Shown one piece after another: positions 30,078 to 59,757 of a stretch of 64,000 nt of DNA. Below the pieces are notes generated by a model. It was not told the origin of the DNA. It was given only the letters and a program-made list of their open reading frames with translations, and did no database searches. The position numbers and the translations under genes are program-made. The stretch's first letter is position 1; each line of letters starts with the position of its first letter. Origin of the DNA: Candidatus Rokuibacteriota bacterium (GTDB lineage Bacteria > Methylomirabilota > Methylomirabilia > Rokubacteriales > CSP1-6); the NCBI GenBank assembly GCA_003220435.1, contig QHSL01000060.1, positions 47,917 through 111,916 of the forward strand. The letters run 5' to 3'.

Positions 30078-30728
30078 TCAGGAGGTCTCCACCGCCTGGA
30101 GGACCGCGCCCAGGAAGTCGCGCTCGGGCACGGCGCCTTCGAACTGCACCCGGTCGTTGATCACGACCTTCGGCACGCCCATCACGTGGTAGGCGCGCGA
30201 CAGCTCGGGGAACTCGGTCGCCTCGATGACGGTGGAACGCACGCGATCCGACGCCACCGACATGTGCTGTGCCAGGCGCACGGCCCGGGGGCAGTGCGGT
30301 CAGGTGGGCGTCGAGAAGACCTTGATGTCGACGTCGGACGCCAGTGCCCGCAGCGAGGCCAGGGTGTCCTCGCTCAGCGCCGGCGCGCCGGTCGAGGCCA
30401 CGATGATCGCGTCGATCAGGTTGCTGAACTCGTAGCCGAGCGGGACGCCGTAGAAGCGGATGCCATAGTCGCGGGCGCCCTCGACGACAATGGCCGGCAC
30501 CTGGTCGATCCCGTAGGTCTCGGCGCGCTCGCGGTCGATGGCGAGGTTGAGCACCTCGACCGTGATCTGCGCGGAGAGCGCGGCGACCTCGCGCACGAGC
30601 TGCTCGTTCTGCCGGCAGAGGTCGGCGGCGGCGAGCTCCTGCGAGAAGACGACGAGCTTCACCCCTCCGGCGATGCGCTCGAATTCCTTGCGGACGGCGG
30701 CCTGGTCGCGCTCGGTCAGAATGGGCAT
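30078..30728 (-). CDS. Candidate selenoprotein: a PDO / AhpF-N-terminal-like double thioredoxin-fold oxidoreductase. The in-frame TGA at 30300-30302 is read as Sec in the motif TPT-U-PHCP.
   Basis: The track ORFs 30300..30728 and 30078..30281 are in the same frame and separated only by TGA plus 6 codons. The junction reads ...KVFSTPT-[TGA]-PHCPRAV(R)LAQHMS..., and PHC completes a DsbA/PDO-type CPHC active site whose first Cys is the TGA. The second ORF would otherwise begin 6 codons after the active site with no redox motif. A hairpin lies 12-28 nt downstream of the TGA. Confidence 0.55.
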
Positions 30729-39521: not shown

Positions 39522-39564
39522 GCGGTTCTCCTTTCACTTCTCTTCGGGCGCCCTATTATAGGGC

Positions 39565-40203
39565 GTGGACTTCGTCAACGTTCCGGCCGGATCGTTCCGC
39601 ATGGGCTGGGCCGACGGTCACCCGTGCGAGCGTCCGGGGCACGTCGTGTGGGTCGACGCCTTCCTGATCGCGCGCACCCCGGCGACGAATGCCGACTACG
39701 CCGCGTATCTGGCCGTCACCGGCGCCGCGCCCCCGCCGTTCTGGTCCGATCCGTCGTTCACCGATCCGCTCCAACCCGTCGTCGGACTGTCGTGGGTCGA
39801 CGCCGTCGCGTTCGCTCGATGGTCCGGTGCGCGTCTGCCGACGGAGGCCGAGTGGGAGAAGGCGGCGCGCGCCGGCGTGGAGGACCGCCGCTTCCCCTGG
39901 GGCGACGAGCGGCCCGATGCGACGTTCGGCCGACCGCCACGCGTCGGTCGGACGCTCGCCAACGCGCTCGGACTCACCGATCTCTCGGGCGTCTGCCACG
40001 AATGGTGCGCCGACTGGTACGACGACGCCTACTACCTCCGTTCGCCCGCACGCAACCCGTGCGGGCCGGAGAACGGCGAACGGCGCGTGAGCCGCGGCGG
40101 CGCCTGGCGCCACGCCGATCCGTGGAGCCCCGTCGCGCATCGCTCCTCGCTGCCGCCGCACCTGCGCTACTCCGACTACGGCGTGCGTCTCGTCCGCGCC
40201 TGA
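39565..40203 (+). CDS. Formylglycine-generating-enzyme (FGE/sulfatase-modifying-factor) domain protein.
   Basis: RMGW...GLSWVDAVAFARWSGARLPTEAEWEKAARAG...NALGLTDLSGVCHEWCADWY...RVSRGGAW follows the FGE-sulfatase / EgtB-C-terminal-like pattern. Confidence 0.7.
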   Translation: MDFVNVPAGSFRMGWADGHPCERPGHVVWVDAFLIARTPATNADYAAYLAVTGAAPPPFWSDPSFTDPLQPVVGLSWVDAVAFARWSGARLPTEAEWEKAARAGVEDRRFPWGDERPDATFGRPPRVGRTLANALGLTDLSGVCHEWCADWYDDAYYLRSPARNPCGPENGERRVSRGGAWRHADPWSPVAHRSSLPPHLRYSDYGVRLVRA

Positions 40204-40227
40204 CGGCGTACAATACCCGCGAATCAC

Positions 40228-41172
40228 ATGGCGCCCGCGCGGGAGTCGATCCTGAGGGAGGGGATCTTCGCCGGCCTGATCGGCGCGGCCGTCGTCGCGG
40301 TCTGGTTCCTGCTGTTCGATCTCTGGCGAGGGCAACCGTTCCTGACGCCGGGATTGCTCGGCGCCGCCGTCTTTCAGGGCGTGAACAACCCGATCGGCGT
40401 CCAGCCCACCGTCGGCAACGTCCTCGGCTACACGATCGTCCACGGCCTGGCGTTCATCGCGTTCGGCGTGCTCGCGGCGAGCCTCATGGCGGTGAGCGAG
40501 CGCGAGCCCACCCTGCTCCTCGCGTTCGTGATCCTCTTCGCCAGCTTCGAGGTGTTCGTGTTCGGCGTCGTGGGCGCGCTCGGGAAGTCGATGCTGGGCG
40601 CCCTCGTGTGGTGGGCGATCCTGATCGGCAACCTGCTCGCGTCGTTTGCGATGCTCTGGTATTTTTTCCGCGCTCACCGAACGCTGTCGCGGACGCTGAT
40701 CGGCTCCTGGGGCGGTGTTGTCCGCGAAGGGGTCGTGGCCGGCCTTCTCGCCGCCGCGGTCGTCGCGGGCTGGTTCCTGGTGATTGACGCGATCCAGGGC
40801 GAGCCGCTGCGGACGCCGAAGCTCCTGGGCACGGGGCTGCTGCGCCAATCCGACCCGCTCGCCGCGATCGTCTCGTACACGATCGCGCACGGGATCGCGT
40901 TCGCGCTGTTCGGCATCATCGGCGCGGCGCTCATCGCCAGCGCCGAGCGGCAGCCACTCTTCGTGTTCGCCCTGGTGATCTTCTTCACCGCGTTCGAGGT
41001 GTTCTTCATCGGCGGCGTCCTCATCGCGGCCAAGTGGATTTTGGACGAGCTCGCCGGCTGGACCGTCCTGGTCGGCAATCTCCTCGCTACCGTCGCCATG
41101 CTCGCTTACTTCTTGGCTAACCATCGGGCGCTTGCTCGGCGGCTTACTGAAGCTTGGGCTGAAGAAGACTAG
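40228..41172 (+). CDS. Integral membrane protein built from two tandem homologous halves of about 150 aa each (DUF-type).
   Basis: ESILREGIFAGLIGAAVVAVWFLLFDLWRGQPFLTPGLLG...ASFEVFVFGVVGALGKSMLGALVWWAILIGNLLASFAML in the first half parallels GVVREGVVAGLLAAAVVAGWFLVIDAIQGEPLRTPKLLG...TAFEVFFIGGVLIAAKWILDELAGWTVLVGNLLATVAML in the second. This is a clear internal duplication. Confidence 0.7.
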   Translation: MAPARESILREGIFAGLIGAAVVAVWFLLFDLWRGQPFLTPGLLGAAVFQGVNNPIGVQPTVGNVLGYTIVHGLAFIAFGVLAASLMAVSEREPTLLLAFVILFASFEVFVFGVVGALGKSMLGALVWWAILIGNLLASFAMLWYFFRAHRTLSRTLIGSWGGVVREGVVAGLLAAAVVAGWFLVIDAIQGEPLRTPKLLGTGLLRQSDPLAAIVSYTIAHGIAFALFGIIGAALIASAERQPLFVFALVIFFTAFEVFFIGGVLIAAKWILDELAGWTVLVGNLLATVAMLAYFLANHRALARRLTEAWAEED

Positions 41173-41941
41173 CGGCGGACGGGCGGCGGAGGACCAGGAG
41201 GTCGATGGCTTCGAGAACTGGCGTCGGGATGGTTTCCTGGTCGGCGGCGTGGCGCATGCGGGCGAGGCCGGCTTGGAACTCGGCGTCGGTGATGAGGGCG
41301 AAGGTGGAGAGGGCGCGCTGCTTGATGCGGTCGTAGTGGGCGGTGAGGCTCGCGTCGATCTCTTGCTCGAGCGTGTCGAGGGCGACCAGCTCGAAGCCGT
41401 GGGCGGCGAAGGCCGAGCGCACCGACTCAACCGTCGGCAGACGCGCCTCGTCGGCGGCGCGCGCCTCGGGGAAGAACTCGAAGTAGCGCACGCGGTCGAG
41501 CCGCCCGGCGAAGGTGTTGCGGATGAACACGAGGCCACCCGGCTCGAGAACCCGGCGCAGCTCGCGCGCGCAGGCGCCGAGGTCGCCCACGTGATGGATG
41601 ACCATCGAGAGGAACGCGAAGTCGAACTCACCGTCGGCGGCCGGGATGGCGTCGGCCGCGCCTCCCACGTAGGCGACGTCGCGATGCGCGCCGTGGCGCT
41701 CGGCCTCCTCGCGCATCTTCGCGGACGGCTCGACGCCGACGACGCGGGCGCCGAAAGCGTCGGCCAGGATCCCCGAGAAGCGACCGGTGCCGGCACCGAG
41801 GTCGAGGATCGCTCGCGCGCTCCGCCGGCCGAGGTAGGCGGCGATCGCATCCATCCAGAGCCCACCGGTGTCCGGCGCGAGCGCGCGGCCCGTGCGATAC
41901 GTCCGATAGAGATCGCGGTCGTAGTCGACCGGCGTCACCAC
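41144..41941 (-). CDS. Class I SAM-dependent methyltransferase.
   Basis: ILDLGAGTGRFS is motif I, and a post-I acidic residue follows. The product is 265 aa. The GTG start overlaps the upstream stop. Confidence 0.8.
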   Translation of the reverse strand: MVTPVDYDRDLYRTYRTGRALAPDTGGLWMDAIAAYLGRRSARAILDLGAGTGRFSGILADAFGARVVGVEPSAKMREEAERHGAHRDVAYVGGAADAIPAADGEFDFAFLSMVIHHVGDLGACARELRRVLEPGGLVFIRNTFAGRLDRVRYFEFFPEARAADEARLPTVESVRSAFAAHGFELVALDTLEQEIDASLTAHYDRIKQRALSTFALITDAEFQAGLARMRHAADQETIPTPVLEAIDLLVLRRPSAASLLQPKLQ

Positions 41942-42699
41942 AAGGCGTCGGGGAGGGGCAGTCCCTTGAACTCGTGGGTCGGCAGTGGCACGGACGGCGT
42001 GATGCCGAGCCGCTCGGCGAGCGCATAGAGCTGCCGCAGGTGCTGCGCCGCGTGCCAGGTCGTGCGCTCGAGCAGGTCGTGGCCGGACTGCGGGCCGTAG
42101 TAGACCTTGATCACGCGCTCGAACTCACCCGGCGACGCGCCCTCGAACCAGCCGGTGATGCGCCCGCGCACGAGGGCGCCGTAGCGCGCGATGGCCGGAC
42201 CGTCGCGCAGGTCGTCGGGCGCCTGGTCGAGCAGCCAGGTCCCCGGGAACTCCCCGAGGTCCATGCCGTCCACGAACGCCAGCGAGAGCCGGAAGACGTG
42301 ATAGCCGAGGTTGCGGAAGGTCCGGTTGCGCTCGGGAGGCCGCCACTCGAGATGCTGGTCCGGCACGATCCGCATGAACTGCTGGGTCGTGTCCAGGAAG
42401 ACGTCGAGCCGCCGGGCCAGCTCCGTCGGCGGAAGCTTGGTCACCCCCGCGTAGGGAATGCCGAGCAGCGCGGCGTAGGCCGGCGGGTTCCAGCCGTGCG
42501 CGGCACGGTCGCCGACGGTGACCGCCGGCACGCGGGATACGCCCAGCCGCTTGAGCTCGTCGTAGCCCGCCGGGTTCGCCTGAACGTCCACCGGGTCGAA
42601 CTCGACCCCCCAAGACGAGAGAAGCTCCTTCGTCTTGGCACAGGACGATCAACCCGGGCGATAGAAGAGCTTGACCACTGTTCCAGAAACCTTGCTCAT
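41935..42699 (-). CDS. Candidate selenoprotein: a glutaredoxin-like domain (U-S-S-C motif, TGA at 42649-42651) fused to a DinB_2/YfiT-like thiol-dependent enzyme domain.
   Basis: ATG at 42699 gives MSKVSGTVVKLFYRPG-[TGA]-SSCAKTKELLSSWGVEFDPVDVQANPAGYDELKRLGVSRVPAVTVGD..., a textbook Grx fold (xCxxCxxxKxLL..GVxFxxVDV) whose first active-site Cys is the TGA. The track starts this gene at GTG 42591, in the middle of the Grx fold. A perfect 9-bp stem with an 11-nt loop (CCAAGACGA-AGGAGCUUCUC-UCGUCUUGG) starts 11 nt downstream of the UGA. Confidence 0.55.
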
Positions 42700-43866: not shown

Positions 43867-46800
43867 TCAGGTCAGTCCGAGGCGCCGCCGGGCCACCGCC
43901 CCGACGACGTTCAGGACGTCCTCGATCTTCAACGGCTTGCCGAGCACCAGCTCCACACCGTGGGTCTGGCGCTCCGCCGCCGACAGCTCGACCCCGAATC
44001 CGGAGACGAGGACCACCGGCACCGCGGGGGCATGCTCCTTGACGGCCTGGGCCACCTGCCAGCCGGACACCCGGGGCATCGCCAGATCGGTGAACACGAG
44101 GTCGAAGAATTCGGAGCGGATCCGCGCGATCGCCTCGCCGCCGTCGTTGAGCACCACGACCCGATGGCCCGCCATCTCGAGCAAGTCGCCGAGCACCGCG
44201 CCCACGTCCTCCTCGTCGTCGACCACCAGACAGCGCAACGACACACCGGGCGGCGCGGGCTCGACGGCCGACACGGTCTCCGCCCGCTCGGGCGCCGCGC
44301 GCGGCGTGAACCGGAGGCGGAACGTGGTACCGCGGCCCTCCTGGCTCTCGACCGTGATCCGCGCGCCGTGGCGCGTGAGGATGCCGTACGTCATGGAGAG
44401 CCCCAGGCCGGTGCCCTGCGGGCCCTTCGTGGTGAAGAACGGGTCGAAGATCTTGCCGCGGATGGCCTCGGGGATTCCGACGCCGGAGTCGACCACCGTC
44501 ACCACGACCTCGTCGCCCTCCACGGCGGTGGTGAGGGTCAACGACCCGCCCCCCGGCATCGCGTCCAGCGCGTTCAGGATGAGGTTGGTCATGGCCTCGC
44601 GGAGCTCGGCGGGGTCGCCGGCCACCCGGGGTAGGTTCGCGAACGAGGTCCGCACGTCGAGGGCCACGCCGCGACTGCTCGGCTCTTCCTTCCAGCTCGA
44701 CTGGGTGATCTCGAGCGCTTCGCGCACGATCTCGTTGAGGTTGATCGCGACGAAGGGCTGATCGCGGCGCGTCCGCGTGAACTCCTGCAGCCGCCGGACG
44801 GTCTGCGCTCCGTCGAGGGCGGCGCGCTCGATCACCTTGAGCCACTGGCGCAGCTGCGGGTCTTCGAGCCGCTGGAGCGTCAGCTGCGCCCGGCCCAGGA
44901 TCGACGCGAGCAGGTTGTTGAAGTCGTGGGCGACGCCCGACGCCATCTCGCCGAGCGCGCGCAGCTTCTCCGTGCGGACGAGCTGGTCCTGCGCCGCCGC
45001 CAGCTCGCCGTACGCACGAGTGCGCTCCTCGAAGAGCTGCGCGCTACGCAGCGCGAGCGCGACGAGGTGGGCGATGTTGGTGAGGAGCCGCTCATGGGCC
45101 ACGCTGAACGCGCCCTCCGCGCTCCGGAGGCCGAGCACGCCGAGCACCGCTTCGTCCGCCATCATCGGGACGCCCAGCCAGTAGCGCAGCGGCGCGACGG
45201 CCAGCGTGGGCTCGACGCCCCGGCGGGCGCACTCGCCGATGTAGTCGTCGGTGCGGAGCGGCCGCCCGGTCTGGATCACGACCGACATGAGTCCGACCGA
45301 GCCGAGAGGATACCGGAGCGGCGCGCGCGCGTCCGGCGCGCCGTCGACGACGCGGAGCGCGATCTCGAGCTCCTTGCGCTCGGGGTCGTGGAGCGCGACG
45401 AACAGGTGACGGGCGTCCAGCACGCGAGCGACCTGCACCCGGATCGCCTCGATGAGGGCCACCCGATCGAGCTGGCCGGTGACCGCCTGCGACAGCTCGT
45501 GGAGCACCGACAGCTCCTCGACCTGCCGACGGTTCTCCTCGAAGAGGCGGACGTTCTCGAGCGCGACCCCGGCCTGCGTGGCGACGGCTTCCATCAGCGC
45601 CATCTCGCCGGCCGAGAGCTCGCGCACCTGCTCCCACCAGATCAACGAGAACCCGCCGATCACCCGCTCCTGCGCAACGATCGGGACAAACAGGTGGCTC
45701 TGGTGCGCGAGCAGCTCCTTGGCAAACTGTGGAATCCGTCCGTCGCCGGGCACGTCGGCCGAGAAGATCGGGCGCTTCGTCCGGATCGCCTCCGCCAAGA
45801 AGGCATGCTCGGCGAGCGGAATGCTGAAGCCCGTCATGCGGGCGCGGAGATCGACGGGAACGTGGTAGCCGGCGACCGGCAGGAGCCGCGAGCCGTCCTC
45901 ATCGAGCAGCCACACCCCCGCCGAGTCGGCGCCCAGGGCGCGAGTCACGCGGCGGAGGAAATGGCGGAGGAGGGCCTGGAGGTCGAGCGTCGTCGACATC
46001 GCCTGGCTCAGCGACAGCAGTGTCTCCGTCTCACGCACCCGCTCCCGGGCCTCGGCGTAGAGTCGCGCGTTCTCCAGCGCGATGGCGGCCCGCGCGGCGA
46101 AGCTCTCCAGGACGGCCAGATCCTCGTCGAGGAAGGGCGCCGCAGGGTCCCCCGCGCGATTCATGGCGATGACGCCGAGCAACCGGTCCTGGAAAATGAG
46201 CGGGCACGCCACCGCACGCGTCACGCCGAGATCGACCCATCGCTGGAGGGCGACGCTCGAGTCCGCGTAGTCGTTGACGATCAGCCCCCGCTGTTGCTCG
46301 GCGCAGGCGCCGACCACGCCGTGCCCGAAGCGGACGGTGACGCCGCCGAACCCGCCGCCCTCCGTCCACGCGCGGGGCGCCAGCATCCGATCGCCGTCGA
46401 CGAGATAGATGACGCCGTTGGCCTCGAAGAGGCGCGTGGCGCGCTCGACGATCAGCGTGAACAGGCGCGCCGGATCGAGCTCGGGCGCCAGCTCGCGCTC
46501 GGCCTCGGCAAGCGTCGCGATCTGGGCGCGGCGGGCCGCCTCGAGCGAGAACAGCCGGGCGTTCTCGAGCGCCAGCGCGGCCTGGTCGGCGAACGCCTCG
46601 AGCAGTGCGACCTCGGCCGGCGAGAAGACGCGGCCGCTCGCGTCGGCCAGGGCCAGCGCGCCGATGATCCGTCCCTTGGCTCGGAGCGGCACCGACAGGA
46701 CCGCGCCGTCACCCGCTTGCCGCATCGTCGCGCGCAGGTCGTCGGTCATGACGACGGTCGGATCCGTGAAGAGATCGGCCGATGCGACGGCCCGCCCCTC

Positions 46801-49800
46801 GGCGACGGCCCGGCCCGACGCGCCGACGCCGGCGGGCACCGTGGATCCGAGCTGCAGCACGTTGCGAAGGTGACCGCCCACCGCCAGCGTCACCAGCGAG
46901 CCGTCGGGCTGGAGCAGCCGCAGCGTCGAGGACTGGGCCCGGAAAAATGCGGTGACGCTGTCGACGATCCGCTCGCCGACCGCCCTGGGATCGAGGCTCT
47001 CGGTGAGCGTGCGGGCGAGTCGCGCCAGCTCTTCCGCCTCGAGCCGGCGGCGCGTACCCTCCGTGTAGAGCCGGGCATTCTCCAGCGCGAGCGCGGCCTG
47101 GTCGGCGAGCGCCTCGGCGACGCGGATCTCGTCCTCGCCGAACCGCCGGCCGGGCTGGTCGCCGACGGAGAGCGCCCCCACGACGCGCTCGCCCACCCGC
47201 AGCGGCACCGCCAGCACCGCGCGATGGCCGGCGCGCTCGGGGCGCGGGCGCGTCTCGTCGGTGAACGTGAAGCGGGGGTCCGTCGAGACGTCGGGGGTCG
47301 CGAACGGTCGGCGCTCCTCGACCGCGAGGCCCGCGACACCGATGCCGCTGGGCATCACCGGGTTCCGGCCGACCGCCACTCCGGAGGTGCCCGAGACGGC
47401 GAGCGCGACGAGCGATGCGGACTCCGTCTCGAGGCGATAGAGCGTGGAGGACTCCGCGGCCAGCACGCTGAGGGCGTTATCGGCGACCCGTTGCGCGACG
47501 AGGTCGGGATCGAGGGTTTCCGAGAGGAGTCGGCCGAGGTCGGCCAGCGCCCGCATGCGCTGCGCCTGGCGCGTGGCCTCGTGATACAGGCGGGCGTGCT
47601 CGAGCGCGATCGCCGCCTGCCCGGCGAACGCCTCGGCGATCTCCTGGTCGCGGGCCGAGAACGGTCGCCGCGCTCGGAAGCTGAGCACGCCGATCGCCCG
47701 GTCCGCCACCTTGAGCGGCACGCCGAGGAACGTCGTGTAGCCAAGCCGCTGCTGCGCCTCGTAGTGCTCCGGCACCACGTCGGTGACCGACGTGAGCTCG
47801 CAGTTGATCGTCCCGCCGCTCGTCATGACCCGACCGCTCAGGCTCTCGTCGATCCGGATGCGCGGGCGGAGCATCGTCTCGTGGGCGGCTCCGGCGAGCC
47901 CCGCGATGACCAGTTCGTCGCCGTCGAGCAGGCGGAACCTGGCGTTGTCGACCTCGAGGAGCCGGGCGGCCTCCTCGGCGATCGAGGAGAGCAGCGAGTC
48001 GGTCGGCGTCACCCCGCCGATCTTCTTGTTGATCTCGAGCAGCGCCGCCAGGTAGGCGCGGCGGGCGCGCTCGTCCGCGAACGCCTTGGCGTTGTTGATC
48101 GCGTTCGCGGCGTGCGAGGCCAGGGAGCCCAGGATCTGGATCTCTTCGAGGGTGTGCGCGTGCCGGACCCGGGAGCCCAGCGCCAGCGCGCCGAGCGCCC
48201 GCACGCCGACCTCCAGCGGGACCACGACCACGCTGACCACGCCTTCAGCGCGCACGCGCTCGACGAATCGGGTCCGCGGGTCGTTGAGCACGTCGACGAC
48301 CTCCAGCGGCTCGCGAGTCACGACGACGGTTCCGATCAGTCCCTCCCCCACCCGCAGCCGCGAGACCTCGCCCCTCGCCACGGTGGTGCCCGCCTCGGTC
48401 CGGAGCGAGACATGCCGCGCGTCGTCGTCCACGATCCACAGCTGCGCGGCGCTCGAGCCGAACAGCTCGACCGCGGCGTCGACCACGCGCTGGAACACCT
48501 CGTCGAGGGAGAGCGTGGCGGTGAGCGTGTGGGCCAGGCGCGCCAGCGTCTCGAGCCGCCGGCTCTTCTCGCGACTCTCGATCAGGAGCGTGGCGCGGGC
48601 CACCGCCTGGCCCACCTGATGCGCGACCGCTTGCAAGAGGTTCAGCTCGTCGGCGTCGAACGCGCGGACGTCCCGGGAGATCAGCGCCATCACTCCCCAT
48701 GTCCGGCCGCTCACGGGAATCGGCAGCCCGAGCTGCGTCCGGTAGCCTCCGGCCCGCAGCCGATCGGCCACGTCGGGGGTCAGCGCTTGCGACGACGTGA
48801 GATCCGAGACAACGGGCCGGCCGCTGTCGATCACCTCGCGGACGTGGCTCTGGTCGAGGGGGCGGACCCGAACTCGCTCGATGTCCGCGGGTAGGAGCCC
48901 GCGGTGGCCGACCAGGACGAGCGTCTGCGCCGCGCGGTCGAAGCGGAAGACGGCCCCGAAGTGCATCCGCGCCAGCGCGCACACGACCTCGAGCGTGCGC
49001 TCCGCGGTGACGGTGAGGTCGTCGCCGCTGCCGGTGGCCACCGCGACGGCGTGCAGTGCCTCGAGCTCCCGGCTTCGGCGCGCGTACGGCGCCTCGCGTC
49101 CTTCCGTACGCGGCTCTCGCGATCCTTCCCCTCGCCCCGACACGATGCCCACGACGACCACCCCGACCGCGACGGCCACCGCGCCGCCCAGCGAGACCGC
49201 CCACCAGAACCAGAGGCGCCGGCTCTCGCCTTGATGCTCGCGCTCCGAGACCAGCGCCCAGATGCTGCCGCCGGCTTCGGCGACCGGACGCGCGATCCAC
49301 GACTCCCCCTTGATGCTCACGCGCCCGGTCCGGGCGACGGCGTCCCAGCCCTGCGTCAGCGCGCCGGCCAGCGTGGAGCCGAGCACGCGGTCGCCCGACA
49401 CCACCACGAGCGCCGCGCGGGTCGGCAGGCGCGCCAGCAACGCGTCCAGCGACTCGAAGCGCCGCCCGACCACGACCATGCCGGCGGGGAGCGGCGCGAT
49501 GCCGAGGACGTAGGGCCGCTCGTCGACGACGGCGAGGCGTGCGACGGTCTCCGGGGGGCGGGCGACCGCCGGCACGACGACCGGGCGCGCCGCCGGCACC
49601 TGGACCAGCGGGGCGCCGGTCGCGTCGACGATGAGCAGCAGGTCGGCGAAGCGCTCCCGCGTCAACGCCTGCATCCGCGGCCCCGCACCGCGCGCGAGCG
49701 TGGCCCAGTCGCTCCGGCTCGTGCCCTCGACGACGGCCGGGTCCTGGGCCAGGAGCCACGCCTCGCGACGCACGTCCTCGAGCGCCGTCGCGACGATCGC

Positions 49801-49953
49801 GTGGACGGACGCGAGCGCGGCGCTGACGGTGGTCGCCTGGCGGGACGCGAGCTGGCGCGCGAGCAGCACGCCGGCGACGGACCAGAGCGTGAGGAGACCG
49901 ACGAGCGGGAGAACCAGGCGGCGCACGGATCGGTGTCCGAGCGCGAGCCTCAC
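43867..49953 (-). CDS. Hybrid sensor histidine kinase. It has a periplasmic sensor domain, about nine tandem GAF domains, HisKA + HATPase_c, and a C-terminal receiver domain.
   Basis: Two TM helices flank a periplasmic domain of about 250 aa. Repeated GAF units each end in ...LENARLY/F. HisKA reads ASGVAHDFNNLL. HATPase_c has DSGVGIP and GTGLGLS. The receiver has LVVDDEEDV...D...LVSGF...K. A GTG start at 49953 overlapping the pyk stop (GTGA) is preferred over the in-gene ATG at 50010. Confidence 0.85.
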   Translation of the reverse strand: MRLALGHRSVRRLVLPLVGLLTLWSVAGVLLARQLASRQATTVSAALASVHAIVATALEDVRREAWLLAQDPAVVEGTSRSDWATLARGAGPRMQALTRERFADLLLIVDATGAPLVQVPAARPVVVPAVARPPETVARLAVVDERPYVLGIAPLPAGMVVVGRRFESLDALLARLPTRAALVVVSGDRVLGSTLAGALTQGWDAVARTGRVSIKGESWIARPVAEAGGSIWALVSEREHQGESRRLWFWWAVSLGGAVAVAVGVVVVGIVSGRGEGSREPRTEGREAPYARRSRELEALHAVAVATGSGDDLTVTAERTLEVVCALARMHFGAVFRFDRAAQTLVLVGHRGLLPADIERVRVRPLDQSHVREVIDSGRPVVSDLTSSQALTPDVADRLRAGGYRTQLGLPIPVSGRTWGVMALISRDVRAFDADELNLLQAVAHQVGQAVARATLLIESREKSRRLETLARLAHTLTATLSLDEVFQRVVDAAVELFGSSAAQLWIVDDDARHVSLRTEAGTTVARGEVSRLRVGEGLIGTVVVTREPLEVVDVLNDPRTRFVERVRAEGVVSVVVVPLEVGVRALGALALGSRVRHAHTLEEIQILGSLASHAANAINNAKAFADERARRAYLAALLEINKKIGGVTPTDSLLSSIAEEAARLLEVDNARFRLLDGDELVIAGLAGAAHETMLRPRIRIDESLSGRVMTSGGTINCELTSVTDVVPEHYEAQQRLGYTTFLGVPLKVADRAIGVLSFRARRPFSARDQEIAEAFAGQAAIALEHARLYHEATRQAQRMRALADLGRLLSETLDPDLVAQRVADNALSVLAAESSTLYRLETESASLVALAVSGTSGVAVGRNPVMPSGIGVAGLAVEERRPFATPDVSTDPRFTFTDETRPRPERAGHRAVLAVPLRVGERVVGALSVGDQPGRRFGEDEIRVAEALADQAALALENARLYTEGTRRRLEAEELARLARTLTESLDPRAVGERIVDSVTAFFRAQSSTLRLLQPDGSLVTLAVGGHLRNVLQLGSTVPAGVGASGRAVAEGRAVASADLFTDPTVVMTDDLRATMRQAGDGAVLSVPLRAKGRIIGALALADASGRVFSPAEVALLEAFADQAALALENARLFSLEAARRAQIATLAEAERELAPELDPARLFTLIVERATRLFEANGVIYLVDGDRMLAPRAWTEGGGFGGVTVRFGHGVVGACAEQQRGLIVNDYADSSVALQRWVDLGVTRAVACPLIFQDRLLGVIAMNRAGDPAAPFLDEDLAVLESFAARAAIALENARLYAEARERVRETETLLSLSQAMSTTLDLQALLRHFLRRVTRALGADSAGVWLLDEDGSRLLPVAGYHVPVDLRARMTGFSIPLAEHAFLAEAIRTKRPIFSADVPGDGRIPQFAKELLAHQSHLFVPIVAQERVIGGFSLIWWEQVRELSAGEMALMEAVATQAGVALENVRLFEENRRQVEELSVLHELSQAVTGQLDRVALIEAIRVQVARVLDARHLFVALHDPERKELEIALRVVDGAPDARAPLRYPLGSVGLMSVVIQTGRPLRTDDYIGECARRGVEPTLAVAPLRYWLGVPMMADEAVLGVLGLRSAEGAFSVAHERLLTNIAHLVALALRSAQLFEERTRAYGELAAAQDQLVRTEKLRALGEMASGVAHDFNNLLASILGRAQLTLQRLEDPQLRQWLKVIERAALDGAQTVRRLQEFTRTRRDQPFVAINLNEIVREALEITQSSWKEEPSSRGVALDVRTSFANLPRVAGDPAELREAMTNLILNALDAMPGGGSLTLTTAVEGDEVVVTVVDSGVGIPEAIRGKIFDPFFTTKGPQGTGLGLSMTYGILTRHGARITVESQEGRGTTFRLRFTPRAAPERAETVSAVEPAPPGVSLRCLVVDDEEDVGAVLGDLLEMAGHRVVVLNDGGEAIARIRSEFFDLVFTDLAMPRVSGWQVAQAVKEHAPAVPVVLVSGFGVELSAAERQTHGVELVLGKPLKIEDVLNVVGAVARRRLGLT

Positions 49954-51383
49954 GTGCGGCGCTCGCCCACCCGGTGAAGCTTCAATAGATTTGTCGTCCC
50001 TCGGACCCACATCGGTGAGCCGGAGATGATAACGATCACGTCATTGGCACGCATCGAGTCGTCGCCGAGCAGGGTCGCCTCGACCTCCTCGATCATCTCG
50101 TCGGTCGTCTCGACCTTCCGGATGAGACGTGACGAGACCCCCCACGAGAGGGCCAGCCGTCGCTGGACCTCGACGAACGGGGTGAGCGCGATGATCGGCA
50201 CGTCCGGGCGCGCCTGGGAGATCAGTCGGGCCGAGAAGCCCGATTCGGTGAACGCCACGATGGCGCGCGCACCGAGCGCATGCGCCGCAGTCGCCGCCGC
50301 GTCCGAGATCGCTTCCGGGAAGCTCGCGCTCGGACGTCGCCGCCGCTCCCGGTCGATGGCCAGCACCGCGCCGTCCGCGCGCTCCGCGATCCGCGCCATG
50401 ACCGCGACGGCCTCGGCGGGATACCGCCCGGTGGCCGTCTCGGCCGACAGCATGATCGCGTCGGCGCCGTCGAAGATCGCCGTGGCGACGTCCGACACCT
50501 CGGCGCGCGTCGGGCGGAGATGCGTCACCATCGACTCGAGCATCTGGGTCGCGACGATCACGGCGACCTTGGCGCCGCGCGCCTGGCGGATGATCTCCTT
50601 CTGGATGTGGGGAACGTCCTCGAGCGGCACGTCCACGCCCAGATCGCCGCGGGCGACCATGACCGCGTCGACGACGTTCAGGATACCAGGCAGGTTGGCG
50701 AGGACCTCGTGCCGCTCGAGCTTGGCGACGAGCGGCACGTCGTCGGCGCCCTCGGCTCGCAGGAAGCTCCGCACCTCCTCGATGTCGTCGGCCGAGCGCA
50801 CGAACGAGACCGCGACGAAGTCGACGCGCTGTCGGAGGCCGAAGCGCAGGTCCGCACGGTCCTTGTCGGTCAGGCAGGACATCGGCAGCGACACGTGCGG
50901 CAGCGAGAGCCCCTTGTGGTCGCTGATGCGCCCACCGGCCACCACCCGGCACCGGACCTCGTCCGGTAGCACGGCCTCGACGCGAAGCTGGATCATCCCG
51001 TCGTCCATCCAGATCTGGTCGCCCGGCCGTAAATCCTTCAAGAACTCCGGATGGGTGATCGACGCGCGCTCGGCGGTGCCGACGACCGGTCGCATGCTGA
51101 GCGCGAACACACCGTCCGGCTCGAGGTCCACGCGCGCGCCGCCGCCGGGCCCGAACGTGCCCAGCCGGATCTTGGGCCCCTGCAGATCTTGAAGTATGGC
51201 CACCGGCCGGCCCCAGCGGGCCTCGCCTTCACGAATGCGACGGATGACTTCGGCGTGCTCCTCGTGCGTGCCGTGGGAGAAGTTGAGGCGCGCGACGTCC
51301 AAGCCGGCCGCCGCGAGGCGGTCCAGCTCGGCGGTGCTGCTGCTGGCGGGACCGATCGTGCAGACGATCTTGGTCCGGCGCAT
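49950..51383 (-). CDS. pyk: Pyruvate kinase.
   Basis: MRRTKIVCTIGPASSS...ARLNFSHG...MVARGDLGVD...VIVATQMLESM are canonical pyruvate kinase motifs. The product is 477 aa. Confidence 0.9.
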   Translation of the reverse strand: MRRTKIVCTIGPASSSTAELDRLAAAGLDVARLNFSHGTHEEHAEVIRRIREGEARWGRPVAILQDLQGPKIRLGTFGPGGGARVDLEPDGVFALSMRPVVGTAERASITHPEFLKDLRPGDQIWMDDGMIQLRVEAVLPDEVRCRVVAGGRISDHKGLSLPHVSLPMSCLTDKDRADLRFGLRQRVDFVAVSFVRSADDIEEVRSFLRAEGADDVPLVAKLERHEVLANLPGILNVVDAVMVARGDLGVDVPLEDVPHIQKEIIRQARGAKVAVIVATQMLESMVTHLRPTRAEVSDVATAIFDGADAIMLSAETATGRYPAEAVAVMARIAERADGAVLAIDRERRRRPSASFPEAISDAAATAAHALGARAIVAFTESGFSARLISQARPDVPIIALTPFVEVQRRLALSWGVSSRLIRKVETTDEMIEEVEATLLGDDSMRANDVIVIISGSPMWVRGTTNLLKLHRVGERRT

Positions 51384-51386
51384 GCG

Positions 51387-54281
<2,895 letters not shown>

Positions 54282-54309: not shown

Positions 54310-56016
54310 TCAGCGTCGCGAGGCCGCGGCGACATTCCACACGCGGCTCGCGGTCCACGCCAGGGGGGCGGCGGCCAGCGCCGGATAGGTCCACACCACG
54401 CCGGCCCACCCCGGCAGGCGTGAGCCGTACGTGGCAACGCCCGCCAGCGCGATCATGCCGGCGAGCGAGCCGGCCAGCCGTGCCCAGCGGTCGGCGCCGG
54501 CGAGACCGGGCGCCACGATGATCGACGCCGTCAGCCCGAGCCCGGCGAACAACAGTCGCGACGCGTCGCCGGGCCACAGGACAGCGGCGGCGGCGGCTAC
54601 GACTAGGATCACGGTCGTCGGATCGGCCAACACCGCTCGCACCGCGGGCGGCCCGAAGGAGACGAAGGGGGACTTCGATCGACTCGACCGGTCCAGCGTC
54701 GCGTCGAGGATGTCGCGCAACGCCGTCGCGGTCGCGAGAAAGAGCATGAGGAGTCCGGCAGCCCCCACCAGCGCGAGGGTCCGACCGGGCGCGCCCGGAA
54801 CGACTGCCGCCGGCAAGCCGAACACCGCGGCGAGCGCCGGCACCCCGATGGAGAGCCCGGGAGCGGCATACGCGCTGTAGATGCCGAGGCAGGCGGCGAT
54901 GAGCACCAGCACGAACAGGAGTCCCGCGCCGGTCGGAAGGCCTTCACCGGCCACCGCCCGACGCGACCGGAACAGAGCGAGTGCGCCGCCGACCAGTGAG
55001 AACACCGCCCCGAGCGCGCGCGCCGCCGTCGAGACGGTTCCCCGCTCGGGCGGATCGGCCCACGCGGCACCCGAGGCCGCCGCCCCTGGGACGCGCTTGC
55101 CCGCCTCGAACTTCAGGCGCGCCCCGGCGTCCAGCACGAGCCGGTCGCCGGGGCGCAGCGACAGCGCGTCCCCCGCACGCAGCTGCCACTCGCGGAGGCG
55201 GTCGAGCTCGAAGACGCGAAACGTCGCCGGGGCGAGCGCGGTGACGCGATGAGCCTCGGTGAACTCTAGGGCGACCGGCGCGGTGAGGGTTCGACCTTCG
55301 GTCACCCAGGAGTGGCGCTCGCCGAACGTGAGCGCCGGTCGCGACGCCACGTCGCGCCATGCGCTCCACGGGGAGACCGCCACCGTCAGCGCGACGACCG
55401 CCACCGGGACCACGAACCCCAGAACGCCGGCGCAGAGCAGCGTGAGACCTTTGCCGCCGGCGACGAAGTCGGCGCGGAGGCGGACGGCCATCAAGGCGAG
55501 CGCTGCCGCCACGAGAGTCGCCGCCCAGCGTGGATAGCCCAGGGCTCGCGCGACGTCGCCCAGAAGCGAGAGGTTCGCCCAGAGCACGAGCCCGATACTC
55601 AGGCCGGTTGCCACCGGCGCGACGGGGTTCTCGCGTACGGTCTCGTGCGTGGCCGGGACCAGCAATGCGATCAGCGGCGCCACGGTGATCGCGAGGACCG
55701 CGGCCGGCGCCTCCGCGGCGCCCGAGAAGACGGATGCCGCCACGACCGCGAGGATGACCGGCGACGCCCACGCGGCCACGCCGAGCGCGGCGGAGCCGGC
55801 GGGAACGGCGCCCTTGGCGCCGGCGCCGCGTTCGACGGCGGCCACCACGAGCACGGCGGCGAGCGGAGCGGCGAGGGCCGCGTACCACCAGAGCAGGCTG
55901 ATCCCGGCGAGCCTGAGAGCTCCGGGGTTGCCCGGCGCCGCCATCAGGAGGAGAGCGCCGGCGAGGAGACCGAGCAGGGTCGCGACTCCCGCCCGGCGCC
56001 GAGCGGCCGTCGGCAT
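54310..56016 (-). CDS. Polytopic integral membrane protein of unknown function.
   Basis: [26 protein letters not shown]... has at least 12 hydrophobic helices rich in Ala/Leu/Val. I recognise no catalytic motif. Confidence 0.55.
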
Positions 56017-56162
56017 CGCGCGATTATAGCGTTCCCACGCCACCCCCTGAATCGTTATCCTGAAACCTAGCATCTGTTGGAGCGGGGTCCGGGAGACCGG
56101 CTCGAACCGAGGGTGGCCCGAGAGAGGCGCGGCGTGGCTCCGACACGCACGAGGAGGGATCC

Positions 56163-56861
56163 TTGCCCGAAAAGATCGAGCGCGTCATGGTCGTGACGGC
56201 CCACCCTGACGATTCGGAGTTCGGCGCCGGTGGGACCATCGCGAAGCTGGTCAAGGAGGGCTGCGAGGTTACGTACGTGATCGTGACGAACGGCAACAAG
56301 GGCTCGAGCGATCGCACGATGACGCCCGAGCGCCTGGCGCTGATTCGCGCCGAGGAGCAGCGCAACGCCGCCCGCACCCTCGGGGTGGCGCGCATCGAGT
56401 TCCTCGGCTATCCCGACTGCGAGGTCGAGGACACCCGCGACCTGCGCCGCGACGTGACCCGGCAGATCCGAAAGTGGCGCCCCGACCTCCTGATCGCGAT
56501 GAACCCGAACCGCACCTACAACCTCGGCGGCTCCCACCGCGACCATCGCATCACCGCCGCCGTCGCCCTCGATTGTGTCTATCCGCTGGCCCGCGATCAC
56601 ATGTCGTTCCCGGAGCTCATACCCGACTACGAGCCGCACAAGGTGGTCGAGGTCTACCTGATGCAGTGGGAGACCCCCAACCTCGTGGTCGATATCACGG
56701 ACGTCATCGATCTGAAAATCAAGGCGCTGACCTGCCACGCGAGCCAGTTCAAGGATTTCGCGGCGGTCGAGAAGCGCATACGCGAGCGCTCGGCCGAGCT
56801 CGGCAAGGCGAAAGGCTACGCGTACGCGGAGACCTTCGACCGGATCGTCCTCTCGCGATGA
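56163..56861 (+). CDS. PIG-L / LmbE-family N-acetylglucosaminyl deacetylase.
   Basis: VVTAHPDDSEFGAGGT matches the HPDDE zinc-binding motif of the LmbE/PIG-L family. A TTG start follows an AGGAGG Shine-Dalgarno sequence. Confidence 0.8.
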   Translation: MPEKIERVMVVTAHPDDSEFGAGGTIAKLVKEGCEVTYVIVTNGNKGSSDRTMTPERLALIRAEEQRNAARTLGVARIEFLGYPDCEVEDTRDLRRDVTRQIRKWRPDLLIAMNPNRTYNLGGSHRDHRITAAVALDCVYPLARDHMSFPELIPDYEPHKVVEVYLMQWETPNLVVDITDVIDLKIKALTCHASQFKDFAAVEKRIRERSAELGKAKGYAYAETFDRIVLSR

Positions 56862-57595
56862 GCAAGTACGGGCCGGCGCTGGTCAGCGTGGCGCTCTCGC
56901 TCGGCGCCATCGTGGGCTACTTCTCGCTGCTGCGCGTGCCCCTCATCCGGAATCACCCCCTGCTCTACATCGTCGCCTTCGCGCTCGCGGCGGCGATCGC
57001 GGCCGTCGCCGCGCTGCGGGCCCCCCGCTGGCCGAGCCTGACGGCGCTCGCGATCTCGCTGGCGCTCCTGATCCTCGGCAGCTACTTCAACTTCGTCATG
57101 GCGAAGATTCCGCAGAGCTTGATCGCGGCGCGCGTTGGCCAGCCGGCGCCGGACTTCACGCTGCCGGACGCCAAGGGCGCGCCCGTCACGCTCGCGTCGT
57201 TTCGCGGCCGCTCGCCGGTTGTGGTCGTCTTCTATCGCGGCTACTGGTGACCCTTCTGCGTGTCTGAGCTCCAAGGCCTTGGAGCCGTGCTCACGGAGCT
57301 GGGTGACGAGGGCGTGCAGATCCTGGCGATCAGTCCCGATTCGAACGAGCGGAGCCAGGAGCTCGCCGAGCGGCTGCGCGCCCGCTACCGCTTCCTCGCC
57401 GATCGCGACCTCGCGGTGACGAAGCGGTACGGCCTCCTCCACCCTCGCGGCGGCGAAAAGGGCCAGGACGTGCCGGTGCCGGCGACCGTCGTCCTCGACC
57501 GCGACGGGATCGTTCGGTGGCTCACGGTGGCCGACAACTACCAGGTGCGACCCGATCCGGCCGATGTCGCGCGTGTCGTGCGGGCGATCAAGTGA
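56858..57595 (+). CDS. Candidate selenoprotein: a membrane-anchored TlpA/ResA-like (AhpC/TSA-redoxin fold) thiol:disulfide oxidoreductase. The in-frame TGA at 57248-57250 sits in a W-U-PFC motif.
   Basis: ATG at 56858 (overlapping the upstream stop as ATGA) gives three TM helices, then QPAPDFTLPDAKGAPVTLASFRGRSPVVVVFYRGYW-[TGA]-PFCVSELQGLGAVLTELGDEGVQILAISPDS.... This is the TlpA/ResA WCxxC redoxin pattern with the first Cys replaced by TGA. The track splits it at the TGA into ORFs 56474..57250 and 57260..57595, which share a frame. A palindromic hairpin GCUCCAAGGCCUUGGAGC starts 17 nt after the UGA. Confidence 0.6.
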
Positions 57596-57688
57596 TGGTC
57601 GTGCGAGCCGAGGCGGTGCCTCCGCCGAGGCGAGTCTAGTGATGGTCGTGCGAGCCGAGGCGGTGCCTCCGCCGAGGCGAGTCTATCA
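57591..57688. repeat. A 49-bp unit duplicated in direct tandem (GTGATGGTCGTGCGAGCCGAGGCGGTGCCTCCGCCGAGGCGAGTCTA).
   Basis: The copies at 57591-57639 and 57640-57688 are identical except for the last 2 nt. Each holds a GGCGG-N5-CCGCC hairpin. Copy 1 overlaps the stop codon of the preceding gene and copy 2 ends at the YbaK start. Confidence 0.85.
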
Positions 57689-58177
57689 ATGATCGAAAAT
57701 GCCAGCGTTCAGCGGGTCCGGGAGGCGCTGACGGCGGCCGGCGGCGGCCACACCGTAGTCGCCCTGCAACAGCCGGCGCGGACGGCGGCCGAGGCGGCGC
57801 AGGCGGTCGGCTGCCGCGTCGACCAGATCGCGAAGTCGCTGGTGTTCCGCGCCACTCGGAGCCAGCGCGCGGTGCTGGTCGTCGCGAGCGGCGCCAACCG
57901 CGTCGACGAGCTCAAGATCGCCGGGCTCCTCGCCGAGCCCATCGCCCGCGCCGACGCGGACTTCGTGCGCGCTCGGACAGGCTACGCGATCGGCGGCGTC
58001 GCGCCGATCGCCCACGCCGAGCCGCTCACGATCCTGATCGACGAAGACCTGATGCAGTGGCCGGAGATCTGGGCGGCGGCCGGTCACCCGAACACGGTCT
58101 TCAAGCTCACGCCCGACGACCTCGTGCGGATGACCGGCGGCCGCGTCGCACCCGTCAGGACTGGAGATGGAAGATGA
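57689..58177 (+). CDS. YbaK/ProX-family aminoacyl-tRNA deacylase (trans-editing domain protein).
   Basis: The product is 162 aa. ...IAKSLVFR...AVLVVASGANRVDELKIAGLL...TGYAIGGVAPIAH is the YbaK/prolyl-tRNA-synthetase-editing-domain pattern. Confidence 0.75.
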   Translation: MIENASVQRVREALTAAGGGHTVVALQQPARTAAEAAQAVGCRVDQIAKSLVFRATRSQRAVLVVASGANRVDELKIAGLLAEPIARADADFVRARTGYAIGGVAPIAHAEPLTILIDEDLMQWPEIWAAAGHPNTVFKLTPDDLVRMTGGRVAPVRTGDGR

Positions 58178-59574
58178 CCATCTTCAGCTCGGTCATCTCC
58201 TCGATCGCGTAGGCCGGTCCCTCTTTCCCAAAGCCCGACTCCTTGAGGCCGCCGTACGGCATGCGGTCGGCACGCCACTGCGGGCCCCAGTTCACGTGCA
58301 GGTTCCCCGCCTGTACCTCGCGCGCGAACTTCCACGCCCACTCGAGGTTCTCGGTGAAGATCCCGGCGGCGAGCCCGTAGTTCGTGTCGTTGGCGAGCGC
58401 TATCGCCTCGTCGATGTCGGTGAACGGCGAGACGGCGACGGCCGGGCCGAACAGCTCGTCGCAGGAGATCCGCATGTCCGGCTTGACGTCCGCCACGATC
58501 GTCGGCGCGTACATCGCTCCCTGGCGCGTGCCGCCGGTGACGACTCGCGCGCCGCTCGCCACCGCCTCGCGCACCCACTCGTCCACCCGGGCCGCCTCCT
58601 TCTCGCGGATCATCGGACCGATCTGGACGCTCGCGTCGAGCTGATTGCCGACCTTGAGCGCGCTGACCTTGGGCCGCAGCGCATCGAGGAAATCGTCGTA
58701 GACGCGCGACGCGGTCAGGACACGCTGAGTGGAGATGCAGACCTGCCCCGCGTTCGCGTAGCCGGTCGACGCGACCGCGGCGGCGACCTTGTCCAGGTCG
58801 GCGTCCGGCATCACGATCACCGGCGCGTTCGAGCCGAGCTCCATCGTCACCCGCTTGATGCCGGCCGTCTTGCAGATGTGCTCGCCGACGTCGCGGCTGC
58901 CGGTGAAGGTGATCTTGCGCACGCGGCGATCGGCCACCAGTGCGTCGCCGATGTCCCCGCCCGACCCGGTGAGGATGTTGATGCCCTCCGGGGGCAGGCC
59001 GGCCTCGAGCAGGATCTCGGTCAACCGGATCGCCGACAGCGGCGTGTCGGTCGCCGGCTTCACGATCACGGCGTTGCCGCCGGCGATCGCGGGGCCGACC
59101 TTGTGGCAGACCAGGTTCAGCGGGAAGTTGAAGGGGCTGATCGCGACCACGACGCCGCACGGCACGCGGATCGTCACGCCGAACTTTCCCTTGCCGTGCG
59201 ACGCCGCGTCGAGCGCGACGGTCTCGCCGTGGACGCGCTTGGCCTCCTCGGCCGACTCCATGATCGTGTCGACGGCCCGCAGCGCCTCGGCGCGTCCCTC
59301 GGCGACGATCTTCCCCTCCTCCCTCGAGATCAGCGTGCCGAGCTCCTCGACGCGCGCGGCCAGCAGCTCGGCGGCGCGATGGAGGATCTTCCAGCGCTCG
59401 TGGCTCGTCAGCTTCGCCATCGCTCGAGCGCCCCGCTCGGCCGACTGGAGCGCGCGCTCGATGTCACCGCGATCGGCGCGCGGCACGGTGTCGATGACGC
59501 TGTTGTCGTACGAATTGCGCACCTCGATCTTCTGGTCCTTGTCGATCCACTGGCCGGCCACGTACATTTTCATT
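58155..59574 (-). CDS. NAD(P)+-dependent aldehyde dehydrogenase.
   Basis: MKMYVAGQWI... contains TFTGS and GSRDVG. ELGSNAP holds the catalytic Glu and VCISTQRV the catalytic Cys. EGPAYAIEE is the ALDH C-terminal motif. The product is 473 aa. The 625-aa track ORF extends spuriously upstream. Confidence 0.9.
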
Positions 59575-59587
59575 ACGAGTCCCCCTT

Positions 59588-59713
59588 GAATCGTATCCGC
59601 GCCTCCGCCGGCGGGGCCCCAGCCCCGCGACGGCGTGCGGCGCGCACTACGATTCGTATCCGCGCCTCCGCCGGCGGGGCCCCAGCCCCGCGACGGCGTG
59701 CGGCGCGCACTAC
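59588..59713. repeat. A 63-bp unit repeated twice in tandem, containing a GC-rich palindrome (REP-like). It lies in the divergent aldehyde-dehydrogenase / peptidase promoter region.
   Basis: GA(A/T)TCGTATCCGCGCCTCCGCCGGCGGGGCCCCAGCCCCGCGACGGCGTGCGGCGCGCACTAC occurs at 59588-59650 and 59651-59713. The outer stem is GCGCGCC/GGCGCGC and the inner stem is CGGGGC/GCCCCG. A diverged third copy lies at 23131-23184. Confidence 0.85.
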
Positions 59714-59757
59714 GATGGGGAGCGTACGCCTCACAACAGCTGGAGTAAAATACGAGT

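Follow-up and report, generated by a model that had tools for sequence, protein, structure and literature searches.

An in-frame TGA in a membrane-anchored redoxin gene of a Rokuibacteriota bacterium, very probably read as selenocysteine

Contig QHSL01000060.1 of a Candidatus Rokuibacteriota bacterium carries, within the 64,000-nucleotide stretch analyzed here (the window), two open reading frames (ORFs) on the forward strand, 56474..57250 and 57260..57595, which stand in one frame, 786 nt apart in the ORF list, and are parted by a TGA codon. Does this codon end a small membrane protein, or does it encode selenocysteine (Sec) in the active site of a single redoxin, as an earlier note on this DNA had proposed? 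Taken as a whole, our comparisons are best explained by the latter, with 56858..57595 very probably forming one gene for a 245-residue selenoprotein, a redoxin with Sec at residue 131 and a Sec insertion sequence (SECIS) of its own.

One reading frame across the TGA

Translated from the ATG at 56858..56860 (+), the complete gene (56858..57595, +) has 245 codons including Sec131 and ends at the TGA 57593-57595, an extent obtained from translation, Pfam searches with U replaced by C, and tblastn. It contains a single internal stop, TGA 57248-57250, in the context ...VVVFYRGYW-*-PFCVSELQGL.... The start codon overlaps the stop of an upstream PIG-L gene (TGA 56859-56861) as ATGA, just as the earlier note had placed it, and is kept as ATG or GTG with the same 4-base overlap in the five closest relatives (L001-L005); tblastn matches in relatives span residues 1-245, beginning at residue 1. 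Both sides of the TGA carry the same-frame coding signature, with a GC content at third codon positions of 0.95 and 0.87 in a window of 69.5% GC.

With U replaced by C, the protein matched the Pfam family AhpC-TSA over residues 93-221 (E=1e-31, 109.9 bits versus a cut-off of 26) and Redoxin (E=2.7e-25); the two matches together fall within residues 93-233 and both cross the TGA. The claim that the two ORFs are one gene split at a TGA is thus borne out by the translation and by a domain that runs through the codon. Neither half holds a complete domain. Had the downstream ORF been complete with a CxxC of its own, the earlier note would have given way; it encodes the C-terminal part of the domain only and has no CxxC. 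Nor did the TGA turn out to be an error, the other doubt raised there, since three independent metagenome contigs/assemblies carry the gene with 100% identity, the TGA along with the rest. Gene callers cut it on those contigs into ORFs of 130 and 102 amino acids, and the N-terminal piece stands in GenBank as PYM94090.1, a 130-amino-acid "hypothetical protein". TGA is also the commonest ordinary stop in the window (20 of 30 genes), so the genetic code is not reassigned.

We then compared the codon at position 131 across one genome per species (185,579 species), a scan that gave 592 related stretches from which the best 80 loci were kept. Among these 80, the codon is TGA in 65, TGC or TGT in 12, and AGC in 1, with two loci lacking the motif; TAA and TAG do not occur there. 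Past the TGA, the frame continues P-[FYWSL]-C in all 65 TGA loci. The Sec forms come from Rokuibacteriota/Methylomirabilota, Binatia, several Acidobacteriota classes, Limnocylindria, and one Gemmatimonadota metagenome-assembled genome (MAG), among others, and the closest Sec/Cys pairs share 51-53% identity over ∼175 residues. This comparison shows the putative Sec codon to be conserved as TGA across many phyla and to be nearly always Cys where it is replaced in relatives, supporting the proposal that the TGA stands for the nucleophilic Cys of a redoxin.

Protein databases show the same break. Among 120 relatives listed from a search of 5.8 billion proteins, 80 are full-length with W-C-P-x-C at the Sec position, and 32 are ORFs of 134-148 amino acids with a three-transmembrane (three-TM) N terminus whose last residues are exactly ...FYRGYW. 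A profile of the N-terminal half, run against 1.84 billion representatives at 50% identity, recovered 348 proteins at E≤1e-10; of the 149 ranked highest, 108 stop exactly at ...RGxW. That profile search also found proteins of 843-1,717 amino acids (P0141, P0142, P0158, and P0168) with four to six tandem TlpA-like WATWCxPC redoxin domains, an architecture unrelated to that of the window gene.

One relative, P0001 (also P0005), joins the three-TM anchor to the C-terminal portion of the redoxin domain, with ∼40 active-site residues deleted in frame; the deletion removes both YRGYW-U-PFC and the SECIS. Its DNA is contiguous on two independent JGI contigs (L084 1501-2115 and L085 618-1232), and P0001 is therefore a real variant and not a gene-calling artefact, possibly a decaying copy.

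The hairpin behind the UGA

The earlier note had also pointed to a palindromic hairpin 17 nt downstream of the TGA. We find it at 57268-57285 (+), where the 18-nt palindrome GCUCCAAGGCCUUGGAGC begins 17 nt past the TGA and folds as a bacterial SECIS (bSECIS)-type hairpin with a 7-bp stem (57268-57274 with 57279-57285) and a GGCC loop (57275-57278). The bSECIS consensus describes a loop of 3-9 nt, a stem of 4-16 bp, a G in the first two loop nucleotides, a distance of 16-37 nt from the UGA, and a minimum free energy of ≤ -7.5 kcal/mol (PMC13188914). On all four bSECIS criteria, the window hairpin falls within the consensus (7 bp, loop GGCC, 24 nt from the UGA, -9.1 kcal/mol). The comparison with SECIS models that the earlier note had called for therefore came out in favor of the hairpin as far as the consensus goes and failed with Rfam, which holds no match to it.

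The conservation of its codons speaks for the hairpin. In 15 genes of the Rokubacteria-type clade, with 55-85% protein identity, the stem codons GAG, CTC, CAA, CTT, and GGA are kept in 15/15, 15/15, 15/15, 14/14, and 14/15 cases, respectively. Three of these codons are rare at the codon usage of the window, with CAA making up 8.6% of Gln codons, CTT 2.5% of Leu codons, and GGA 8.9% of Gly codons. The Gly codon of the loop (GGN, between CAA and CTT) uses all four codons in the same 15 relatives, and codon choice for Leu and Gly is free at other sites of the gene. Pairing is kept in 105 of the 105 stem cells scored in these relatives. Because synonymous sites are frozen in the stem, rare codons included, while the wobble position in the loop is free, this comparison shows that the nucleotides of the putative SECIS are selected beyond the needs of the protein, that is, as RNA.

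Other clades carry hairpins of different sequence at the corresponding place (given as stem-loop-stem): AACUCCG-AGUUA-CGGAGUU in Acidobacteriota, CAGCU-YGGRA-AGCUG in Binatia and Blastocatellia, CGGC-AGUUR-GCCG in Pyrinomonadaceae, and ACUGCA-AGGUY-UGCAGU in L033 and L053. In these, the loop begins 16-24 nt past the UGA with G then G/U in its first two positions, and they fit the consensus. By RNAfold-based criteria, a consensus hairpin follows the codon in 56 of 65 Sec genes versus 3 of 14 Cys/Ser homologues (Fisher p = 5e-6) and 73 of 260 control codons in the same genes (p = 7e-18), both values being upper bounds on significance given that the sequences are related. The nine Sec genes that fail these criteria carry the same hairpin at a weaker energy.

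Active site, location, and competing explanations

The AhpC/TSA (peroxiredoxin [Prx]-like) thioredoxin-fold domain (57134..57520, +; residues 93-221) is assigned from PF00578, from its best PDB match, and from Foldseek on the model of a homologue. The predicted Sec codon (57248..57250, +) takes the first position of a CxxC-type motif and is followed by C (UGA-C). Cys134 (TGC, 57257..57259, +) would be its resolving partner in U-P-F-C, from alignments to 2cx3 and 3hdc, and Pro208 (57479..57481, +) sits in a conserved LPxPAT motif at the position of the TlpA-like cis-Pro and of the Prx catalytic Arg, according to phmmer alignments to 3hdc and 2cx3 and to the consensus of the family itself.

The best PDB sequence match by phmmer is the BCP of A. 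pernix, 2cx3. In that alignment, Cys134 pairs with the Prx peroxidatic Cys, Sec131 with Thr/Ser, Arg127 with Pro, and Pro208 with the catalytic Arg. In the alignment with the TlpA-like 3hdc, WUPFC pairs with WCPYC and vPaTvvlD with lPdTfivD, the segment that faces Pro208 where 2cx3 has akRavfiv; the Pro of such lPdT-type segments is the cis-Pro of TlpA-like proteins. We used an AlphaFold2 model of P0072, a three-TM Cys homologue of 38% identity (mean predicted local distance difference test score, 84.6), to examine the fold. The first motif Cys of P0072 (Cys132) lies directly before helix α-1 (133-144), and Foldseek against the PDB ranked BCP/PrxQ structures best, with a target TM-score of up to 0.89, and ResA 29th with 0.84. 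Among NCBIfam models, BCP thiol peroxidase came out on top, followed by SelL-related, ResA, PrxU, and TlpA, all far under their curated cut-offs, and no NCBIfam selenoprotein model reached its cut-off with the window protein.

The predicted fold is thus Prx/BCP-like, and the active site, by alignment, is of the thioredoxin type, with UxxC and a Pro at the TlpA cis-Pro position and without the Thr and Arg of Prx. The description of the protein as TlpA/ResA-like in the earlier note therefore stands for the active site (the WCxxC motif and the position of the proline) and does not stand for family membership, with ResA, TlpA, and DsbE all below their cut-offs; it is probably right on the likely mode of action.

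Ahead of this domain, a hydropathy scan predicts an N-terminal membrane anchor (56879..57088, +) of three TM helices at residues ∼8-24, 35-51, and 61-77, as had been claimed; the helices of the P0072 model span 3-27, 37-55, and 59-81. Among the 65 Sec forms, 36 have three TM segments, five have two (probably three), and 22 have a single signal-peptide-like segment (for example, ...SLAALAQTKLGPKDG), giving an anchor or signal-peptide-like N terminus in 63 of 65. A hydrophobic N terminus is absent in 9 of 14 Cys/Ser genes. Of the Cys homologues nearest to it in the protein search, P0072 and P0097 have this three-TM anchor, and others carry lipoboxes or signal peptides. Over 32 N-terminal fragments, mean counts of Lys plus Arg are 2.2 in the N-terminal tail, 1.3 in loop 1, 2.75 in loop 2, and 1.6 after TM3, which favors an N-in/C-out topology. 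On the strength of the positive-inside rule and of the signal peptides and lipoboxes of homologues, we propose with moderate confidence that the three helices are anchored in the inner membrane and that the redoxin domain faces the periplasm.

By analogy with the established Sec pathway, this hairpin would act as a bacterial SECIS, SelB-GTP-Sec-tRNASec would bind it as the ribosome reaches UGA-C, and Sec would be inserted at the UGA in place of termination. The three N-terminal helices would then hold the protein in the inner membrane with its redoxin domain in the periplasm, where Sec131 and Cys134, as their place in the active site suggests, may cycle between selenol/thiol and selenenylsulfide. 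Because Sec and Pro stand where Prx has its Thr and Arg, with Pro at the TlpA-like cis-Pro position, the protein would work in the manner of TlpA/ResA, as a thiol:disulfide (or hydroperoxide-reactive) oxidoreductase of the thioredoxin type, rather than as a canonical Prx. It is probably cotranslated with the upstream PIG-L deacetylase.

Several results weigh against this interpretation. We could not detect selA, selB, or selD in the 64-kb window (Pfam annotation of ∼33 ORFs), and neither the window nor 60 related loci gave a tRNA-Sec with ARAGORN. Taken alone, the hairpin is statistically ordinary for a genome of 70% GC: it showed no excess stability over dinucleotide shuffles (z = 0 to -0.5), 259 of 300 synonymous-codon resamplings at window usage had a best hairpin at least as stable, and a consensus-type hairpin follows 16% (perfect stem of ≥5 bp) or 9% (≥7 bp) of 7,490 arbitrary codons of the window. 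Rfam returned no SECIS or other credible RNA family for the whole window at the gathering threshold or for 56800-57700 at E≤10. Within clades, we observed no compensatory double substitutions, stems being invariant or changed to G-U only; covariation of the hairpin is seen between clades only. The structure model is that of P0072, a Cys homologue with 38% identity, in place of the window protein, and the window protein's own Lys plus Arg counts (1, 2, 2, and 2) leave its topology ambiguous. Folding energy was dropped as SECIS evidence after the shuffle and resampling tests gave no excess stability, and the selenoprotein interpretation rests instead on the homologue comparison, in which both the TGA and the hairpin go well past anything that chance would give.

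Could the UGA be read through without selenium, for instance as Cys by a selC*-type opal-suppressing tRNA-Cys or by near-cognate suppression, giving an ordinary CxxC redoxin? UGA-C is a weak terminator, and the lack of Sec machinery in the 64-kb window would fit such read-through. tRNA-Cys species that mimic tRNA-Sec are possible opal suppressors in some anaerobes (PMC5389517). A TGC codon, however, would give Cys directly; selC* tRNAs are reported from other phyla; Methylomirabilota MAGs are reported to have large predicted selenoproteomes (PMC13188914); and a TGA with a SECIS-type hairpin conserved in 65 species genomes from several phyla is a signature of Sec. We therefore give this explanation only a slight chance. 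The remaining way to do without Sec, that the locus is a pseudogene, a sequencing or assembly error, or two genes (one for a membrane protein of 130 residues, the other for a protein of 102-111 residues with its own start), agrees with how gene callers and GenBank annotate it (PYM94090.1, 130 amino acids), with a GTG at 57260 that could start the second ORF, and with the natural occurrence of active-site-deleted variants such as P0001. It is nevertheless effectively refuted by these comparisons, with next to no probability left to it, because in all 65 species genomes with a TGA the break sits at one and the same codon and is never another stop, three assemblies agree exactly in sequence, and ...RGxW is the end of 108 among the 149 top representatives; moreover, neither half has a complete domain and the coding signature is continuous in one frame.

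A different question is what a Sec-containing protein would do, and here a Sec-dependent periplasmic peroxidase, a Prx/GPx analogue in which Sec131 attacks the peroxide and Cys134 resolves, has to be set against a disulfide reductase. Selenols react quickly with peroxides, BCP/PrxQ peroxiredoxins match best in both sequence and fold, and Cys134 pairs with the peroxidatic Cys of Prx. Yet the Thr of PxxxTxxC and the catalytic Arg are both gone, with Sec and Pro in their places and the Pro at the TlpA-like cis-Pro position, and with the BCP equivalog model the protein reaches 55.7, where the cut-off is 140. We consider a peroxidase rather improbable and prefer a thiol:disulfide oxidoreductase with Sec131.

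Genomic surroundings and relation to known systems

The gene directly upstream (56163..56861, +) encodes a PIG-L/LmbE-family deacetylase (Pfam PF02585, E=4.7e-34), whose stop overlaps the redoxin start. PIG-L is a probable operon partner, probably coupled to the redoxin in translation, and occupies this place only in the close clade (L001-L006, L008, and L014). Beyond PIG-L in close relatives, the 80 loci share no conserved neighbor; an SDR gene that recurs in seven of them was considered as a linked neighbor and judged generic. Since no neighbor is conserved across clades, the context provides no functional lead. A scan of 55900-58300 for promoters and terminators found nothing. The window is close to the Rokubacteria MAG AR34, with 85% identity for the redoxin, 93% for PIG-L, and 97% for aldehyde dehydrogenase. 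On the other side of PIG-L, divergent from the PIG-L-redoxin pair, lies a gene (54310-56073, -) for a 587-amino-acid polytopic membrane protein with no Pfam match, which adjoins the pair in L001-L006 and L008 with 41-84% identity.

The redoxin is not the only gene of the window with this pattern. The earlier note had counted it as the third thioredoxin-fold gene with TGA for Cys within 27 kb, and the count holds, the other two lying at 30302 (-), a distance of 26.9 kb, and at 42651 (-). The second Sec candidate (∼30078-30728, -; TGA 30300-30302) encodes a two-domain glutaredoxin/thioredoxin-like protein with the motif FSTPT-U-PHCP that, with U replaced by C, matches Pfam Thioredoxin_3 (2.8e-23) and Glutaredoxin; it has a consensus-type hairpin, CCGGGC-CGUGC-GCCUGG, whose loop begins 17 nt past the UGA. 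The third candidate (∼41935-42699, -; TGA 42649-42651) has an N-terminal glutaredoxin domain with FYRPG-U-SSC fused to DinB_2 (Pfam 1.1e-12 and 1e-7) and a 9-bp hairpin past the UGA, CCAAGACGA...UCGUCUUGG, whose 11-nt loop puts it outside the strict consensus. On the plus strand near this candidate lie an ORF with an FGE-sulfatase domain (39562-40203) and an unannotated ORF of 322 amino acids (40204-41172); the DinB and FGE-sulfatase domains together recall EgtB/OvoA-type enzymes. Two further same-frame TGA codons, at 10815 (between a 327-amino-acid ORF and MTHFR) and at 51389 (between UvrA and pyruvate kinase), were examined and set aside as ordinary gene boundaries. With three candidates in 64 kb, it is plausible that the organism uses Sec and has an expanded set of thiol-oxidoreductase selenoproteins. 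A Methylomirabilota MAG with 63 predicted selenoproteins, reported by Deng et al. 2026 (as cited in PMC13188914), agrees with the expanded set proposed in the earlier note.

A 47-nt tandem repeat (57583-57685) occupies the whole spacer between the redoxin stop codon, where it begins, and a ybaK-like gene. It is of the variable-number kind, with two copies in the window and three on the otherwise identical contig L081 (3880-4024), and the region forms a strong fold (-48.5 kcal/mol, z=-2.8). Intergenic tandem repeats also occur at 4746-4940 (87 nt x 2.2, 98% identity) and, upstream of the aldehyde dehydrogenase gene, at 59591-59716 (63 nt x 2.0, 100% identity), and long near-perfect intergenic repeats seem to be a trait of this genome. 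The window further encodes a hybrid sensor kinase of 2,057 amino acids (43867-50040, -), in which HisKA, HATPase_c, and receiver domains come after eight GAF domains.

By its PF00578 domain and predicted UxxC motif, the window gene fits the category of Prx-like thiol:disulfide oxidoreductase selenoproteins, which were reportedly introduced by Kryukov and Gladyshev in 2004. Table 1 of PMC13188914 gives these as PF00578 proteins with UxxC known since 2004; "Prx-like 1" (pfam00578, UxxC) is abundant in marine metagenomes of the GOS survey (PMC2398784), and the described representatives are mostly from Deltaproteobacteria and marine metagenomes (PMC1794560, PMC2398784). The gene is a new member of a known selenoprotein type that is common in soil bacteria and systematically misannotated. 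It reveals no new mechanism, as Prx-like selenoproteins with UxxC go back to 2004 and the large selenoproteomes of Methylomirabilota were reported in 2026. It does correct the public annotation of PYM94090.1 as a 130-amino-acid hypothetical protein, the gene being split by every gene caller, and it adds a well-supported selenoprotein to an uncultivated soil phylum.

Three points go somewhat beyond the literature consulted: how widely the subfamily is spread over soil phyla, how nearly all of its exported forms use Sec, and how its SECIS hairpins differ from clade to clade. We tentatively suggest, as a possibility that we hold to be doubtful for now, a large unannotated subfamily of exported or anchored Prx-fold UxxC redoxins in Rokubacteria, Acidobacteriota, Binatia, Gemmatimonadota, and Chloroflexota, comprising at least 108 clusters at 50% identity, in which Sec would be the rule; with equal caution, its Cys relatives in the genome set might mostly lack an export signal. 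If true, this would suggest that selenium chemistry has been specifically selected for in the soil-bacterial periplasm and that an in-frame SECIS evolved separately in each clade, and would make the subfamily a potential marker of widespread Sec use in soils. As an entire subfamily, exported Prx-fold redoxins of soil bacteria are systematically miscalled owing to Sec-UGA, and repairing them would alter estimates of selenium use in soils; the clade-specific hairpins offer a clean set for building better SECIS predictors.

Compared with known redoxins, the window protein shares with TlpA/ResA/CcmG (DsbE) a W-C-x-x-C-type motif at the N terminus of helix α-1, a Pro loop (LPxPAT versus LPTTF), and an anchor or export signal, but is nearer to BCP/PrxQ in sequence and fold, has a predicted Sec for the nucleophilic Cys and three TM helices instead of one, and stays below the ResA (NF002854, 44.4 versus 170), TlpA (NF047696, 33.4 versus 230), and DsbE (TIGR00385, 21.7 versus 123) cut-offs. 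PrxQ/BCP proteins (A. pernix 2cx3/4gqc and S. solfataricus Bcp4 3hjp) are the best sequence and structural matches of the window protein and the P0072 model, yet the segment aligned to PxxxTxxC reads Y-R-G-Y-W-U-P-F-C, with Pro changed to Arg and Thr to Sec, the catalytic Arg position is held by Pro, and the score against the BCP equivalog (NF006960) places the protein outside that group. SelL-related NF040769 is the second-best NCBIfam match, at 46.5 bits versus a cut-off of 120, and the protein is not a member. PRX_like2 (CDD cd02970) likewise has a Prx fold with a CxxC-type motif replacing the Prx triad. The selenoprotein entry for cd02970, however, has UxxS and not UxxC (PMC13188914).

With the Prx-like thiol:disulfide oxidoreductase selenoproteins, the window gene shares PF00578, a UxxC motif with Sec first, the existence of Cys homologues, and a SECIS directly behind the UGA within the coding region; the subfamily described here differs in its YRGYW-U-P[FYW]C signature, its three-TM anchor or signal peptide, and its occurrence in soil phyla. 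The hairpin resembles the bacterial SECIS consensus (the bSECISearch model of Zhang and Gladyshev) in its 7-bp upper stem, its 4-nt apical loop opening with GG, and its 24-nt spacing, and has no sequence similarity to the prototype, the SECIS of E. coli fdhF; even between clades of this one redoxin family, the stems and offsets of the SECIS differ.

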